Of a stretch of DNA of 24,717 nucleotides, positions 3,922 to 24,466 are shown in pieces. A program made the translations under genes and the position numbers. The stretch covers positions 1 through 24,717 of the IMG/VR virus record IMGVR_UViG_3300033405_000945, one strand, 5' to 3'. Numbering within the stretch: position 1 is the first letter of the stretch; each line of letters opens with the position of its first letter. The notes beneath the pieces are model-generated. The model saw only the letters and a list, made by a program, of their open reading frames with translations. It was not told the origin of the DNA and made no database searches. The DNA is from a virus (taxonomy: Duplodnaviria; Caudoviricetes).

Positions 3922-4554
3922 ATGCTGCGTAGACCCAAAGGCAAGATCTCCATGCTCCCGGAGAACGTGCGAGATCAGATCAATGACAAGATCCGCAACG
4001 GCTGGCAGTACCGCACCATTCGCGACTGGTTGTTTGCCCAACGCGCCGAGCAGGACATCCCGGATCTGCAACTGAAGGCGGGTGACCTCTATGCCCTGGT
4101 CTGGTCACGCGATGCAAAGACGAAGCGGTCGATGCAATGCACCTGCCTCAACGCCCTCAGCGATTGGTATCGAACCCATTACCGCAGCTGGCTCAAGGAC
4201 CAGCTCTCCTTTGACCGCGCCCTCCGCCTCGTCGAGGAAAACGAACAGCTCAGTAGCCTCGCCAGCGACAAGGCCCAACCAGACTCCAATCTCGGCGGCA
4301 CCCTCATCGTCCGCTCCTTATTGATGGACGCCATCCGCGCCCTCTGCGAAGACGAAGAGGCCGCTAATCCCGCCCAACTGGCGCGCCTCGCCAATGCCTG
4401 GGCCCGCATGAGCGACACCGGCCTGCGCGGCCAGCAATCCCTCGACGCCGGCCTCCAGTCCCTGCGCGACGAAATCAAATCCAACCCCAACGCCCTCGAG
4501 CACTTCAACAAACTCTACGCCACGCTGAAACACCCCAGCCAAAAGAAGTCATGA
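3922..4554 (+). CDS. Mu gp27-like (DUF3486) putative small terminase
   Basis: N-terminal KGKISMLPENVRDQINDKIRNGWQYRTIRDWL pattern. ATGA overlap with the large terminase. Confidence 0.75.
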   Translation: MLRRPKGKISMLPENVRDQINDKIRNGWQYRTIRDWLFAQRAEQDIPDLQLKAGDLYALVWSRDAKTKRSMQCTCLNALSDWYRTHYRSWLKDQLSFDRALRLVEENEQLSSLASDKAQPDSNLGGTLIVRSLLMDAIRALCEDEEAANPAQLARLANAWARMSDTGLRGQQSLDAGLQSLRDEIKSNPNALEHFNKLYATLKHPSQKKS

Positions 4555-7082
4555 CCCGCGTCGCTGAAGAACTCAAACAAGGCCTCGACGGCAGCCTCTC
4601 CTGCAAAGTCGCGACGCCATCGGTCCGCTCGTTCCGCGAGTTTTTGGAGAAGCATGCCCGCGTGAAGACGCCGGATGGAAGCTATGCGGCGTACACGTTT
4701 GCGGGACGGGAGGCGCTGGAATTTGTGGTGGGGATTATTGACCGGGTGTTGGCGAATGGCGACGGCCACGAACCCACCCCTGTATCCCCTCCGAGGAGGG
4801 GACCCAACCCGAACGTGTTCTCCATGCATTCATCCCCTCCGAGGAGGGGAACGGATCCGCACTCGAATTCCATGCATTCATCCCCTCCGAGGAGGGGAAC
4901 GGATCCGCACTCGAATTCCATGCATTTATCCCCTCCACCGGAGGGGATCAAAGGGGTGGGTCATCCGATCTCCGACGCACGCCTCACCGCGACGGGGAGT
5001 GCGCAATGGGGCAAGCCGAGTGCGGCACTAGCCGCACGAGACGGCGCGATGTCGTCTTCGCGCCAAACCATCCATGATTGCCCCATCAGCGATGCCCGGC
5101 TCACCGCCACCGGCTCGGCGCAGTGGGGCAAAACCATCCTCGAACTCAATCTGCTCGCGTATCTGACCGGCCTGCAATTTCGTTCGGTCGGTTTGTTCCT
5201 GCCCGATGAAGACCTCGTCGAAGGCGTGGTCGATTCCAAGTTTCGGCCCGACGTGCTCGACCAGCTTCCCTGGCTCAACTCGCTGATCACGCTCGGCAAA
5301 GCCGAGAACGCCTCGGGCAAGACGGTCAACCGCAAAGGCCTGTTCACCTGCACCGATGGCCGGAAACGGTCACACGGGATGATTCACGGGATGCAGAAGA
5401 TCCCGACGACGTTCAGCTTCGACGTGGTGATCGAGGACGAGAAGGACGACATCCCGCCGAGCATGTCGCGGTATCTGACGGCGCGCATGACCGCCAGCGA
5501 TCTGCGGTTCCGCTTGAGCATCGGCACACAACGCTACGCCGGCGCGGGGCAGAACAAGGAGTTCGAGGCCGGCACGATGCATACGGGAGTGTTTGAGTGC
5601 CCAAATCCCAAGTGCCTATACAAACAGAATCCGGAAGAGAACTGGCCGGGGATCTGCCGACTGGCCGTGGATGGCGCGCCGCGAACGGATGATCCGCAGC
5701 TTACCTTGGAAGGGAACTTCCGCTGCGCCGGCTGTAGCCGCCCCGCTCTGTCGGGGCGCATCCCCGACACGGCGACAGAGCGCCGTGGCTACAGCGAAAC
5801 GGGCGTCTTCGACTTCTCTCCCGATGCCCATTTCTACCTCGCCTGTGTCCGGTGCGGCGCGGAACTGAATCGGCACGTGCCGGAGTTCATCCCGCAACAT
5901 CCGGAGCGGGAGAAACTGCATCACTGGTCGGTCCGCATCTCGCAGCTGCTGGTCGCGGCGATCTCGTTGAAGCAAATCGTCTCCGACTGGTGCCACAACG
6001 CGGTGAAAGACCCCGACGCGATGAAGACGTTTTACGTCGACCGCCTCGGCCTGCCGCGGAGCGCGACGCAACAGATTGACCAGAAGATACTGGACCGCGC
6101 GAGAAGTGTGGAAACGTTCGATCTGTCGCTGACGCCGCGCCCCGGCACGGTGCGGTATGCCGGGCTGGACACGGGAGACAGATGCTGGCTCACCGTCCGC
6201 GAATGTGATGGTGTAGTAGCGGCCGTCTCGGCCGCCTCCGCGCCGAGCGGCACAGGCGTCTCGCCTGTAGCCTCCGGTCGTTCTAAACGCATCGTGTGGC
6301 TGGAGCAGCTCAGTGCCGAGCGCGTCCGGTCGCGCGTGCCGCAGATTTTCGAGACGATGGGCATCGCGACGTTGTTTGTGGATGCGGGCCCGCTGCGCGA
6401 TCTCGCGCGCGATTTGTGTTTTCTGCTGAATGGGCTTAACGGCGCGGACGCGCGGCAGCGCGTCTCTCCAAACGACGCGGAGAAAGCGGTCATCCATTTT
6501 CCCGGCGGTCTCGTTTGGGACGGGAGAAGCCAGCAATGGCGCGGATTGCGTTGCGCCGCGGTCGAGTTCTCGCTGAAAACCGGCAAAGGCATCCAGCACA
6601 AGCTCGGCATCACGCAGGACGGACTGTTTTACCCGATCATCGCCTGTAATCGGGACGAGACCATCGAGCGCGTCGTCAATGAATTACTGACGGCCAGCGA
6701 GGGTGTGATTGAGGTGGTTGAAACCGCAGGGCATAACCCACCCCTGTATCCCCTCCGAGGAGGGGAACGAAGGTTGCGGACGGAACCGGCGATTCGACTG
6801 CCCGCGCGCACGGCGGGTTCACCGAAGATTATCGAGACGTTCGACGCGCATGTGATTGCCGGGAGCCGCCGCGACCGCGACGCGGACGGCAACGCCGAGC
6901 ATTTCGTCGACGGTTGCGAAAATCATTTTCTGCTGAGCAACGCCTACAGCGCGCTGGCGGAATCGGTCGGCGAACACGTCGTTCCGCCGGTGTCGGGCGC
7001 GATGGACCCCGATACCGCGGTGACATCGAGCCACACCATGAACCGATTCGGGCGACACACTTTGGCCAGGAGACCCTGGTGA
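4551..7082 (+). CDS. terL: Terminase large subunit (lambda GpA-like) with six in-frame repeat insertions
   Basis: Walker A GSAQWGKT, Walker B VVIEDEKDD, Cys pairs CPNPKC and CVRC, nuclease YAGLDTG, LFVDAGP, ENHFLLS. Confidence 0.9.
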   Translation: MTRVAEELKQGLDGSLSCKVATPSVRSFREFLEKHARVKTPDGSYAAYTFAGREALEFVVGIIDRVLANGDGHEPTPVSPPRRGPNPNVFSMHSSPPRRGTDPHSNSMHSSPPRRGTDPHSNSMHLSPPPEGIKGVGHPISDARLTATGSAQWGKPSAALAARDGAMSSSRQTIHDCPISDARLTATGSAQWGKTILELNLLAYLTGLQFRSVGLFLPDEDLVEGVVDSKFRPDVLDQLPWLNSLITLGKAENASGKTVNRKGLFTCTDGRKRSHGMIHGMQKIPTTFSFDVVIEDEKDDIPPSMSRYLTARMTASDLRFRLSIGTQRYAGAGQNKEFEAGTMHTGVFECPNPKCLYKQNPEENWPGICRLAVDGAPRTDDPQLTLEGNFRCAGCSRPALSGRIPDTATERRGYSETGVFDFSPDAHFYLACVRCGAELNRHVPEFIPQHPEREKLHHWSVRISQLLVAAISLKQIVSDWCHNAVKDPDAMKTFYVDRLGLPRSATQQIDQKILDRARSVETFDLSLTPRPGTVRYAGLDTGDRCWLTVRECDGVVAAVSAASAPSGTGVSPVASGRSKRIVWLEQLSAERVRSRVPQIFETMGIATLFVDAGPLRDLARDLCFLLNGLNGADARQRVSPNDAEKAVIHFPGGLVWDGRSQQWRGLRCAAVEFSLKTGKGIQHKLGITQDGLFYPIIACNRDETIERVVNELLTASEGVIEVVETAGHNPPLYPLRGGERRLRTEPAIRLPARTAGSPKIIETFDAHVIAGSRRDRDADGNAEHFVDGCENHFLLSNAYSALAESVGEHVVPPVSGAMDPDTAVTSSHTMNRFGRHTLARRPW
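4771..4961. repeat. In-frame array of four family A hairpins with 48-bp period, inside terL
   Basis: ATCCCCTCC at 4784, 4832, 4880 and 4928, bounded by AACCCACCCC and GGGGTGGGT. Encodes repeats of SPPRRGTDPHSNSMHS. Confidence 0.95.
4965..5132 (+). repeat. Duplicated 17-codon Walker A segment separated by a structured AGCCGAG element
   Basis: PISDARLTATGSAQWGK encoded at 4965-5015 and 5082-5132. Two-hairpin element at about 5014-5066. Confidence 0.95.
5731..5795. repeat. In-frame GTAG-type REP doublet in terL
   Basis: GCTGTAGCC...GGCTACAGC inverted ends; near-identical to intergenic 3570-3629. Encodes CSRPALSGRIPDTATERRGYS. Confidence 0.95.
6213..6268. repeat. Two in-frame REP-like hairpins in terL
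   Basis: GTAGTAGCGGCCGTCTCGGCCGC and GGCACAGGCGTCTCGCCTGT share a GTCTC loop region. Confidence 0.7.
6446..6469. repeat. In-frame REP-like hairpin in terL
   Basis: GGACGCGCGGCAGCGCGTCTCTCC, same architecture as intergenic 7597-7622. Confidence 0.65.
6735..6767. repeat. In-frame family A element in terL
   Basis: 32 nt identical to 4771-4802 but read in a different frame (NPPLYPLRGG). Confidence 0.95.
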
Positions 7083-12798: not shown

Positions 12799-12809
12799 CA
12801 CACATGACC

Positions 12810-12902
12810 TGTCACCCTGAGCGGACCGAAGCGAAATCGAGTGCTCTCTCTCAAAGAGAACCCTGTCACCCTGAGCGGAGCGAAGCGGAGTCGAAGGGTC
12901 TC
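12810..12902. repeat. Two tandem GTCA-type REP-like elements (54-bp period)
   Basis: TGTCACCCTGAGCGGACCGAAGCGAAATCGA at 12810 and TGTCACCCTGAGCGGAGCGAAGCGGAGTCGAAGGGTCT at 12864. Confidence 0.9.
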
Positions 12903-12978
12903 TCACCCGTCCGACCAAGCATTCTGCTCCCAAACACTCCGCACCACATAAACAGGAGCCCAATCGGCGCGAGCGAAT

Positions 12979-15649: not shown

Positions 15650-16669
15650 ATGCCCGGCAATAACATCGCCGAAATCGTTCTCCGCGTCACCACCGAGGGC
15701 ACGCAAAACGCCCAGATGATGGCGAGCCAACTGAATCAGGTCGATCAGGCCGCGCGTCAACTCACCACGTCCACGCTCTCCGCCACGACCGCGCAACGGG
15801 CCTGCACCACGGAAGTGGGGCGCACGCATTCGCAACTGGCAAAGCTCCTTCAGGATTGGGGCGACCTCGAACGGCAGGTGGACCATTTCTCGGCCACGAC
15901 GCTGCGAAATTTCTCCACGACCTCGGCCCGTGCGCTGACGGAATGGATCGAAGGGTCGGGCAAAGCCCGTGATGCCTTCCGCGGGTTCGTTACCCAGGTC
16001 ATCGAGGGCCTGATCCAGATGGTCATCCAACAGGGCATCGCCCACGCCATCGGCCTGGCGCAAACCCGCGAAGCCGGGGCAACACAGGCAGCCACGAACG
16101 CGCAAATTACGGCCAGCGCCGCGCCCGCTGCCGCCACCCAGGCCGCTGCCACGTTCGGCGCCAACGCCGCGGGCGTCCTCGCCGTCGTCGCCGTCATCGC
16201 CGCCGCGGTCGGCATTCTGGCGGCCACACGCCACGCCGCCGGCGGCGTGATCCGGGGACCGGGCAGCGAGACGAGCGACTCGATCCCCGCCTGGCTCTCG
16301 CACAACGAATACGTCCACACCGCCGCAGCCCACCGCTATTACGGCACCGACGCAATGGACGCAATCAACACCCGCAGTATCCCACGCGAGGCGATCCATG
16401 CGGCGATGAGCCACCAAACGTTTGCGGTGGGAGGCGCAATCACACTGCCCTCATTCGCTGCCGGCGGATTCGTCCGCAGTGGCAGCAACGGACCCGTCAA
16501 CGTCGATGTCGGTTCGCCCAACGTCCTTCTCGGCATCGGCGACGCCGAGATTGGGCGCATGACATCCACGAGTGCTTTCCAAAAGTCCTTTTTCGACAGC
16601 CTGGCCAAAAACGCCGTCCGCACCACCCGTATCGTCACCCGCAACGGAGGCCACCGCGCCGAGTCATGA
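15650..16669 (+). CDS. Short tape measure protein (339 aa)
   Basis: IAEIVLRVTTEG N-terminus, Ala-rich helical body, AAGGVIRGPGSETSDSIPAWLSHNEYV C-terminal TMP motif. Confidence 0.85.
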   Translation: MPGNNIAEIVLRVTTEGTQNAQMMASQLNQVDQAARQLTTSTLSATTAQRACTTEVGRTHSQLAKLLQDWGDLERQVDHFSATTLRNFSTTSARALTEWIEGSGKARDAFRGFVTQVIEGLIQMVIQQGIAHAIGLAQTREAGATQAATNAQITASAAPAAATQAAATFGANAAGVLAVVAVIAAAVGILAATRHAAGGVIRGPGSETSDSIPAWLSHNEYVHTAAAHRYYGTDAMDAINTRSIPREAIHAAMSHQTFAVGGAITLPSFAAGGFVRSGSNGPVNVDVGSPNVLLGIGDAEIGRMTSTSAFQKSFFDSLAKNAVRTTRIVTRNGGHRAES

Positions 16670-17952: not shown

Positions 17953-18035
17953 AAATGATGGACGCCCGACCCACCCCTTCCGCCTTGCTCCTTCCCCTCC
18001 TTGGAGGGGACGAAAGGGGTGGGTTGCCCACATGA
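17949..18035 (+). CDS. REP-derived coupling mini-ORF (28 aa)
   Basis: MKMMDARPTPSALLLPLLGGDERGGLPT. ATGA overlaps at both ends; spans family A element 17969-18024. Confidence 0.45.
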   Translation: MKMMDARPTPSALLLPLLGGDERGGLPT

Positions 18036-19780: not shown

Positions 19781-20424
19781 GGCCAGAACTTCACATTGAT
19801 ACCCACCCCTCATTCCCCTCCAGGGAGGGGACGCAAGGGGTGGGTAATCGCCTTCCATACTTCCACACGTCCGAGCGGGTGGCGGCACTCAAGGACCAGC
19901 TCGCGAAATGGCAGACGACCCGGTGGCGGCATTCGGGCACGCACCCGAACGAGATGCGGTGCGGGATCTCGGGGGATTGCCTGTTCTGGGTGGTCGCGTT
20001 CAAGGCGATCGGGGCGCTGCCGTCGCACCTGGTGATTCCCGATTACCGCAAGATGGAAGCGGCGGGGGACAAGATGGCGTTGTTGCGGCTGCGGATCATG
20101 GAGACGGGCCGGGCGGAGTTGGTCATGGAAGAACCCGCCCCTGTTTCCCCTCCTGGGAGGGGACCGAAGGGGTGGGTGCCGATGGCCGGCGACGTCCTCC
20201 TGTTCCGCAACGGGATGTCGGGCGTGCACTGCGGCCTGGTGGTCCGGCCCGCGCCGATGCATTTCTTTCACCTGAGCCAGAACGGCGCACTCGAAGAACC
20301 GTTCAATCAGTCGCACTGGCTGGCGAGCCTGGCGTTCGTGTACCGGCTGATGGACGAGGAACCCACCCCTTCCGCTTCGCTCCTTCCCCTCCAGGGAGGG
20401 GATAGAGAGGTGGGTGTCGCATGA
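19777..20424 (+). CDS. NlpC/P60-family tail peptidase with three in-frame family A elements
   Basis: WRH...GDC and HCG...FFH catalytic pattern. Repeats at 19801-19845, 20133-20177 and 20361-20415. ATGA overlaps at both ends. Confidence 0.8.
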   Translation: MRPELHIDTHPSFPSREGTQGVGNRLPYFHTSERVAALKDQLAKWQTTRWRHSGTHPNEMRCGISGDCLFWVVAFKAIGALPSHLVIPDYRKMEAAGDKMALLRLRIMETGRAELVMEEPAPVSPPGRGPKGWVPMAGDVLLFRNGMSGVHCGLVVRPAPMHFFHLSQNGALEEPFNQSHWLASLAFVYRLMDEEPTPSASLLPLQGGDREVGVA

Positions 20425-23826: not shown

Positions 23827-24048
23827 ATGAGCACACTCATCAATGGCACCGAAGCCGAGCGCCGCAACGGCGCGAGACGCGGCCACGTCGTATCCCCGGC
23901 CGCAAACGCAGTCCGAGGTGATCAATGAGCACTCTTGTAAATGGCACCGAAGCCGAGCGCCGCAACGGCGCAAGACGCGGCCACGTCGTATCCCCGGCCG
24001 CAAACGCAGTCCGAGGTGATCAATGAGTACTCTTGTAAATGGCACCGA
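23827..24048 (+). repeat. 98-bp tandem duplication: gene start plus AGCCGAG structured element plus SD
   Basis: Units begin at 23827, 23925 and 24023. The third copy continues as the intact gene. Confidence 0.95.
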
Positions 24049-24466
24049 GGACCTGGTCGGGCAAAACCTGACGCCGGCCGCGGCGTATGCGGTGGTGAAC
24101 ACCGCGCTGCAGAAGATCGCCCAGATGCAGGTGTATCCGCAGGACTGCCGATTCCCCGGCTCGGCCCACGCGAATGATATTCGCGACCCGCACGCGATCC
24201 CGTTCCAGCGCCAGCTCGTGCAGGCGGAGATCATCGTCAATGGCGATGCGCCGAGCGGCGGCTCGCTGGTGGTGCAGCTGTTGTTCGGCGGCGTGGCGCA
24301 GACACCCACGCTAAGCCTGAACGCGGGCCAAACCTACGTGTTGATCAATCTATCGAGCGACAATCTGGTCGTCGCCGCCAGCCAGGCGTGCGCGGTGGAA
24401 ATCGTCACCCCGAGCGGGGCGAGCGATGTGGTAGTGAAACTCCTCTTCCAATTGGTGATCCCATGA
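24023..24466 (+). CDS. Hypothetical tail-associated beta-rich protein (147 aa)
   Basis: SD GAGGTGATC upstream; ATGA-coupled to the next gene. Confidence 0.7.
   Translation: MSTLVNGTEDLVGQNLTPAAAYAVVNTALQKIAQMQVYPQDCRFPGSAHANDIRDPHAIPFQRQLVQAEIIVNGDAPSGGSLVVQLLFGGVAQTPTLSLNAGQTYVLINLSSDNLVVAASQACAVEIVTPSGASDVVVKLLFQLVIP

Follow-up and report, generated by a model that had tools for sequence, protein, structure and literature searches.

The window analysed here is a 24,717-nucleotide (nt) stretch of viral DNA (IMG/VR record IMGVR_UViG_3300033405_000945) in which the gene for the large terminase subunit, TerL, carries its P-loop motif twice: a first copy that is split by a 51-nt repeat element with two hairpins, and a second copy that is intact. 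We think it probable that this repeat broke the P-loop of one TerL allele, that an intact copy was added by recombination with the allele of another strain, and that the resulting 117-nt cassette then spread. We refer to the arrangement as a scar.

The two copies (positions 4965-5015 and 5082-5132) encode the same 17 residues, PISDARLTATGSAQWGK, within an open reading frame (ORF) of 843 residues. They differ at 11 of 17 codons and by 14 nt, 10 of these at third positions, with no amino acid change, and both Ser codons change codon box; a recount thus agreed with a preliminary description of the window, made from its sequence alone. When 14 random substitutions were introduced, the peptide was kept in none of 200,000 trials (mean, 8.6 changes), which excludes drift after identical duplication and, as that description had argued, simple slippage. 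The insert splits GK from T in frame, TerL remains open throughout, and the 117 additional nt consist of the 51-nt element and 66 nt of duplicated gene. The break between GK and T, with ACCATCC resuming at 5067, had also been noticed; the family alignment described below fixes the element at 5016-5066 and identifies ACCATCC as the gene resuming. The same 7-nt resumption is found in two related loci (L001 and L032), and an analogous 6-nt resumption in an unrelated gene (L087). Over the junction stretch and the resumption, the three filled alleles, i.e., those carrying the insert, have 14-15 of 15 nt in common.

Logan contigs cross both copies with no differences in X1 record 2 (4897-5309) and X2 record 14 (4897-5262); X1 is possibly the source of the window, X2 is another study, and the evidence is from contigs, not raw reads. 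An assembly chimera of two strains, which the preliminary description had raised as a possibility, was rejected in view of these zero-difference contigs from two studies and of the same structure in other lineages. A further locus (L090) is identical to the window over 3043 nt and was not counted as independent. The same 39-residue unit is present in two proteins, P0008 and P0012, that are 77% and 75% identical to that of the window. These three are the only true duplicates among 120 listed homologues, and all have the element; the same three alone were recovered among 404 candidates of 486-1547 residues, and none of the 120 listed terminase proteins has a tandem motif without the element. P0120 was a false double. 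Homologues without the element have a single copy, which speaks against an ancient duplication shared by distant relatives, the other possibility that had been raised.

The distance between the copies is that of ordinary alleles. In pairwise comparisons of eight single-copy alleles (28 pairs), 3-12 of codons 2-17 differed (mean 8.4), and Ser codons changed box here as well; the two copies in the window differ at 10 of these codons. Because the two distances are equal, copies 1 and 2 are likely the alleles of two different strains and not a designed recoding, in keeping with the earlier proposal of a patch acquired from a diverged allele by DNA exchange. When the outer halves are joined (codons 1-8 of copy 1 and codons 9-17 of copy 2), the product is 2 codons away from a natural allele (L037), and the copies alone are 6 and 4 codons away. 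A close single-copy allele on one contig (X4 record 24, depth 4.3) has this very join, following copy 1 up to 4982 and copy 2 from 5100, and a near-identical single-copy protein is also recorded (P0186).

Identity to relatives falls and rises along the TerL gene, which is therefore a mosaic. Compared with L030, the window has 7, 4, 3, and 1 synonymous differences per 17 codons and then none in six successive blocks. Compared with L001, the inner part of the cassette matches at 25/27, 48/51, 14/15, and 17/18 nt (104 of 111 nt), and the immediate flanks at 17/24, 23/33, and 77/99 nt. In a tree of 20 rows, built on the protein from GKT onward with P0015 replaced by the full-length cluster member P0186, each of the three filled proteins is sister to a single-copy one. 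Three changes are forced, a single change was sufficient in 0% of 200 bootstrap trees, and the approximately unbiased test gave p 4e-62. This pattern corresponds to three gains or to one gain and several losses, and the similarity of the cassettes favours gains. A filled allele of the L001 type was found in the same runs as that of the window (X1, X2). It is likely that the 117-nt cassette reached three unrelated terminase lineages by recombination; having motif sequence on both sides, it could recombine into single-copy alleles.

The predicted protein is consistent with a functional second copy. In the AlphaFold model, residues 72-173, including copy 1 and the element, have a predicted local distance difference test (pLDDT) score below 50, and copy 2 forms a core strand (182-188), the P-loop, and a helix (194-208) with pLDDT of about 95. 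Residues G188, G193, and K194 are invariant in 97 sequences. Copy 2 conforms to the Walker A motif of large terminases (GxxxxGKT/S, with a strand before and a helix after) and copy 1, which reads GKP, does not. Copy 2, which the preliminary description had called intact, is thus predicted to supply the working P-loop of an active protein. The distance from the preceding helix to the last motif copy is 1-60 residues in 35 single-copy homologues and 67-107 residues in the three filled proteins. Among 40 homologues with the motif, none has only a broken copy, and the last copy is intact in all. Removal of the 117 nt from RNA, which the preliminary description had considered, is unnecessary because the frame is open, the 39 extra residues lie in a tolerant loop, and copy 2 is the predicted P-loop. 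The loop also contains a 48-nt repeat whose copy number varies between close alleles.

The element belongs to a family with the pattern AG, CCGAG, a short spacer or hairpin, CGAGACG, a variable hairpin, and CAA. A search for the short form gave 165 exact matches, distributed over 31 of 47 genomes from one Verrucomicrobiia order, and none for a reversed control; 90 of these sites were fetched, and the family survey comprised 124 element copies. In 15 aligned hairpin-type copies the two hairpins covary, with 92.8% of cells paired and 9 of 14 pairs changed on both sides, in a structure drawn from the window's copy and with the reservation that related sequences can exceed shuffles. The length is 51 nt at TerL, the tail gene described below, L087, L092, and L084 alike. 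Ordinary copies have no target duplicate, are often inside other repeats, and are mostly intergenic with unrelated flanks. One of them (L130) carries an empty copy of its own site that shows clean insertion after AG, and some other sites, judged by eye, suggest that 2-3 target bases were replaced; counts of AG before the element are circular, as the search patterns contained AG. Where the element has inserted into other repeats (L110, L141-L144, L107, L120, and L182), 2-3 bases of the target appear to have been overwritten, with GG becoming AG on the left side and G becoming C on the right. Only 2 of 124 copies have a G directly after their terminal CAA. The family looks modular: the second hairpin module is chained after one tag at L128, L174, L184, L188, and L065, and this module occurs alone inside another repeat in L127 near 1580. 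ACCATCC and a TGAT motif were at one time taken as parts of the element and were dropped after the survey; at the second site, GGTGATCA belongs to the gene itself, as its ribosome-binding region.

No linked enzyme was consistently present among 124 and 99 neighbouring ORF proteins, or at IS110 or Y1 loci. None of the same two ORF sets had a Y1 match, and of 30 Y1 loci fetched (37 matches in five genomes), a single one contained an element, which was partial and situated about 1.5 kb from the match, at the edge of the locus. The element tag was in 0 of 30 fetched IS110 loci (32 matches in five genomes); L127 has one element at the margin of an IS110 locus, with about 700 nt between it and an IS110 gene. 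The window has four weak Rfam matches (E up to 5), all of them outside the element. A pattern scan of viral contigs returned nine loci, eight chance-like and one the L001 contig, and a phylum-wide scan gave 1 of 401 genomes, chance-like, i.e., the family was not found in the genomes searched outside the order. The literature searched, which included few subscription papers, held no account of this repeat family or of insertions rescued by a short allelic duplicate.

The scar recurs elsewhere. In the tail region of the window (23827-24022), the intact start of an ORF at 24023 comes after two broken versions of it, and behind each of these is a 51-nt element. The first 30 nt of this ORF have 6 mismatches to the nearest relative, G001, and 2 to G002; of the next nine blocks compared with G001, eight have 0-1 mismatches and one has 3. 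Each broken start reads 33 codons, and its TGA stop overlaps the next ATG; translation might in this way remain coupled to the intact gene. In L073 (G002), whose allele resembles the window's patch, a related variant of the repeat is located upstream of the ORF start, immediately ahead of the ribosome-binding region. A metagenome scan identified 12 loci: 3 copies of the window's sites, 1 chance-like locus, and 7 distinct sites in 8 loci. Two of these seven sites have diverged coding duplicates. In L087 the duplicate is the end of an M20 peptidase gene, with 15 synonymous and 8 non-synonymous differences in 35 codons, and a further, partial unit is present; in L092 it is the end of a PALP gene, with 20 synonymous and 4 non-synonymous differences in 31 codons. 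A protein search, independent of the element, found a displaced PALP end with the element in L304, where the element is about 55 nt inside the displaced copy and some 700 nt of other DNA separate the copies, and another with a degenerate element in L324. Wherever an intact partner exists, it is the displaced copy that contains the element. Displaced ends without the element were found for PALP (L301, L316, and L315/L313) and for M20 (L275), suggesting that additive gene exchange is frequent in this order. Some of these element-free displaced 3' ends (L275, L301, L315, L313, and L316) have small cargo, e.g., a toxin-antitoxin-like pair. In L084 (1504) and L099 (1501) the element directly follows ATG AAG, and a new start codon 10 nt behind it leads into a small gene, presumably an antitoxin gene; this may be a minimal rescue. 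In L083 (1501; the same site as in L089) a small gene that follows a DUF433 gene appears to have its first codons replaced by the element, and the two genes are likely a toxin-antitoxin pair.

The element is not generally accompanied by its target. Anchored duplicates were found at 10 of 124 element copies, at 5 of 119 once the five TerL and tail seed copies were removed, and at 77 of 2000 control sites; general enrichment beside the element was accordingly rejected, since without the seeds it is not above control. By best local score, 14 of 124 element copies and 16 of 291 controls had duplicates. The junction lies 7 nt from the element at TerL, at most 2 nt at the tail gene, 6 nt at L087, about 12 nt at L092, and about 55 nt at L304. 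Diverged duplicates accompany the element at the tail gene, L087, L092, and L304 and are absent from most copies, and movement of the element together with flanking target, one of the two routes first envisaged, is not the rule. Because most element copies have no duplicate and duplicates also occur without the element, selected repair is favoured over a target-carrying element. The simplest reading of these sequences is that additive exchange is common in the order, and that alleles in which the element struck a needed sequence would remain only if they had been rescued.

For TerL we propose four steps. A non-autonomous element, resembling repetitive extragenic palindromic (REP) sequences, would have inserted after AAG in one allele and broken GKT, probably through an enzyme that acts on single-stranded hairpins. 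The broken allele, as recipient or donor, would then have been joined additively to an intact one by homologous recombination at one end and an illegitimate joint 7 nt past the hairpin at the other, so that both versions would stand in tandem. Recombinases that tolerate divergence are known in temperate phages (PMC3945230). With an open frame, 39 spare residues in a tolerant loop, and a predicted P-loop in copy 2, the product could have been kept by selection. Finally, the cassette would recombine into single-copy alleles, each recipient giving its own codons to the outer halves; such contributions by recipients would explain why copy 1 stays identical in protein although it is not needed.

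Several observations count against this history. No terminase allele with the element alone was found among the 40 homologues with the motif, and the order of the first two steps is for this reason only inferred. The enzyme required for the first step was found neither near the elements nor at Y1 or IS110 loci. The placement of copy 2 in the structural model follows partly from the alignment supplied. Further downstream the window and L001 agree at 134/150 and 139/150 nt, so that the excess similarity of the cassette exists only relative to its immediate flanks. In L032 the inner half of copy 1 is not nearer to the other filled alleles (20/27 and 21/27 nt), and this allele fits gains only with a different crossover point, close to the element. 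X4 record 24 and P0186 fit precise loss as well as gain, and recombination weakens any single tree.

The strongest alternative, which we consider unlikely, is that the element delivers its own rescue. An enzyme would cut at two places, one some 50-120 nt ahead of the element and the other a few bases past it, and the excised unit, possibly a single-stranded circle, would recombine into an intact allele, so that the recipient is never broken. TnpA-REP cleaves at a distance on both sides of a REP, and a circle excision model has been proposed (PMC3333891). Such a unit would account for junctions close to the element at TerL, the tail gene, L087, and L092, for tandem units at two sites, and for the window's cassette being an in-register, circularly permuted copy of its target. 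In its broadest form, a gene-less, self-rescuing 51-nt hairpin of peat Verrucomicrobiia that travels with 50-120 nt of target and invades catalytic motifs and start codons without breaking them, the idea is equally doubtful: without the seed copies, anchored duplicates are not above the control level, the L304 copy has neither a nearby junction nor adjoining copies, gene ends are displaced without any element, and no transposase is near the elements. The presence of those element-free ends, together with the accumulation of the element in neutral, repeat-rich DNA, would suit a reversed order, in which exchange left a redundant allelic copy and the element landed harmlessly in it. We regard this order as improbable, because at four sites no more than about 12 nt separate element and junction, where any position in a copy of 47-120 nt would be expected, copy 1 has 0-1 amino acid changes in three lineages whereas the element's own peptide differs at several positions, and exact short-form copies are rare (165 in 47 genomes), yet 2 of 5 PALP remnants from the protein search contain the element (L304 and the degenerate L324).

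Two further explanations carry very little weight. An RNA-guided drive, in which the element would act as the scaffold of a guide, its flank would direct cutting to single-copy alleles, and the recoded copy would be protected, would be in line with the conserved structure, the spread across lineages, and the high synonymous variation in the motif. It is nevertheless highly improbable: the element has no Rfam match, its copies are mostly in intergenic DNA and have unrelated flanks, the codon distance is that of ordinary alleles, and no nuclease gene was found near the elements scanned. Moreover, the scaffolds of TnpB or IscB are far longer than 51 nt. Least credible of all is that the structure is an assembly chimera or that the 117 nt are removed from RNA or protein in the manner of an intron or intein. 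Inteins have a splicing domain, a Cys or Ser at the start, and His-Asn at the end; the insert here has 17 codons from Pro to Gln, and the ORF gave no Pfam match. The site itself, between the invariant Lys and Thr of the P-loop, is the classic position of TerL inteins (PMC5050341), but here a splicing domain is absent and the rescue is through a second copy. The open frame, the intact copy 2, the contigs of two studies, and the other lineages all speak against both removal and chimera.

We compared the element with known short repeats. GTAG and CGTC REPs and the Rickettsia palindromic elements are likewise short dispersed hairpin repeats, some of them in frame in genes, and CGTC REPs also have no linked transposase (PMC3733652). 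The element differs from these in the absence of a GTAG foot (none in 15 aligned copies), in being built of two modules, with an unpaired tag that is constant and a second hairpin that varies and ends in CAA, and in the target duplicate from another allele, which is not seen in the part of that account available for REP and Rickettsia repeats (PMC3733652). Nor do element copies flank a Y1 transposase gene as REP/RAYT repeats do. A CGTC REP has CGTC followed by a stem of 8-9 bp and a loop of 4-5 nt (PMC3733652); CGTC is present on the minus strand of the element, but the commonest form has no hairpin after it. Class-3 HUH-Y1 repeats have a CnGA foot (PMC6006769), to which CCGAG and the first hairpin correspond, although the short form lacks a hairpin there. 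The hairpin consensus published for that class, as far as given in the same paper, was in 0 of 47 genomes of the order, and no class-3 gene was identified in this search, which was by pattern, not by protein. IS200/IS605 elements and TnpA-REP go with a hairpin near the end, as here, and with insertion behind a short motif and no target-site duplication (PMC3333891), two features that ordinary copies of the element may share. Unlike IS200/IS605, the element has no cognate transposase that was found, its flanking target bases often appear changed (by eye), and there is no TnpB scaffold; its ends matched neither an autonomous partner at the 30 fetched Y1 loci nor IS110 ends, as an IS110-derived miniature inverted-repeat transposable element would. 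Judged by these sequence features, the element is not a GTAG or CGTC REP and has only the CCGAG foot in common with class-3 HUH repeats.

The scar as a whole also has counterparts. Differences made by diversity-generating retroelements are confined to adenines of the template repeat, and 9 of the 14 differences between copies 1 and 2 involve no adenine in either copy. In phage 21 and e14, the insert brings a diverged fragment that restores the target gene, icd. Gene-restoring integrative elements of this kind, with integration sites in icd (PMC12540744), are like the scar in combining a mobile insert with a diverged duplicate that leaves the gene intact; the scar, in contrast, lacks an integrase, measures only 117 nt, affects several unrelated genes, and has junctions that vary. 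A merodiploid unites in tandem two alleles that differ in origin and has one new junction, which is the arrangement found at TerL. Homology-facilitated illegitimate recombination is the mechanism that goes with this comparison. In merodiploids made by transformation, an inactivated and an intact copy are likewise in tandem after gene exchange, but these are about 100-900 kb, bounded by insertion sequence repeats, and unstable (PMC3784515), whereas the scar is 47-120 nt, inside a gene, composed of alleles diverged at most synonymous sites, and retained. By analogy, the scar would work like a very small merodiploid made at a REP-like insertion.

The surrounding genes form a Mu-like head and tail cluster, with portal, protease, major capsid, and tail genes (the features discussed are listed in Table 1). 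Close TerL homologues are in metagenome-assembled genomes of Verrucomicrobiia from peat and soil, with one match per genome in 10 of 47 genomes of the order, and the 843-residue protein itself is recorded on a 471-kb contig; the particle cluster is therefore located in a bacterial chromosome. For a gene of such a phage-type locus, the view of the preliminary description that the insertion was lethal finds no support here. No Mu transposase match was found upstream of terL (10 kb in five genomes, 36 of 47 ORFs scanned), which agrees with a domesticated particle and is no demonstration that the particle carried DNA. A host-type gene directly adjoins the left side of the cluster (1-1239), no transposase is present in the window, and the tape-measure-like ORF (15650-16669) has only 339 residues. 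In-frame palindromic repeats of several types are numerous in the phage-type genes (4772-4961, 5727-5763, 6736-6780, 12808-12904, 17956-18024, and 19801-20416).

Table 1. Features of the TerL gene and of the second site in the tail region of the window
Feature	Positions	Strand	Basis
TerL (large terminase subunit) ORF, 843 residues, open frame	4551..7082	+	phrog_675 match, E 2e-22; top fold match HK97 large terminase, E 1.4e-7
Hypervariable loop ahead of first ATPase strand, filled with other in-frame palindromic repeats	4764..4964	+	pLDDT < 50
Motif copy 1, PISDARLTATGSAQWGK; P-loop without Thr (GK then P)	4965..5015	+	sequence
117-nt cassette, missing in a close single-copy allele; ends slide 8 nt within CTCACCGC	4983..5099	+	X4 record 24
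51-nt two-hairpin repeat element (CCGAG-hairpin-CGAGACG-hairpin-CAA), in frame, after AAG	5016..5066	+	alignment, covariation
7-nt resumption (ACCATCC; Thr-Ile-start of Leu) of interrupted frame	5067..5073	+	sequence
Novel junction and short linker into second allele	5074..5081	+	sequence
Motif copy 2, intact; Walker A GSAQWGKT at 5112-5135	5082..5135	+	invariant columns, predicted fold
Second site: broken start (MSTLINGTE) of the ORF at 24023, from another allele	23827..23854	+	sequence comparison
Second 51-nt element	23855..23905	+	family alignment
Repeated ribosome-binding region and broken start (MSTLVNGTE)	23906..23952	+	GGTGA(T/C)CA ahead of start in relatives L072, L073
Third 51-nt element	23953..24003	+	family match
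Ribosome-binding region and intact 147-residue ORF; first 30 nt look foreign	24004..24466	+	mismatches to G001/G002

REP-like insertions and additive gene exchange are both already known. The scars, found in four unrelated genes, are a rare base-by-base record of how both have acted on a catalytic motif. Neither Rfam nor the parts considered of two papers on REPs (PMC3733652, PMC6006769) contain a match to the repeat family, and sites at which both filled and empty alleles exist make the spread of REP-like repeats a testable question. Finally, the scars point to frequent short-tract exchange, in an uncultured order, between alleles that differ at about half of their codons, and such exchange is relevant to a possible role of the Mu-like particle locus as a gene transfer agent.

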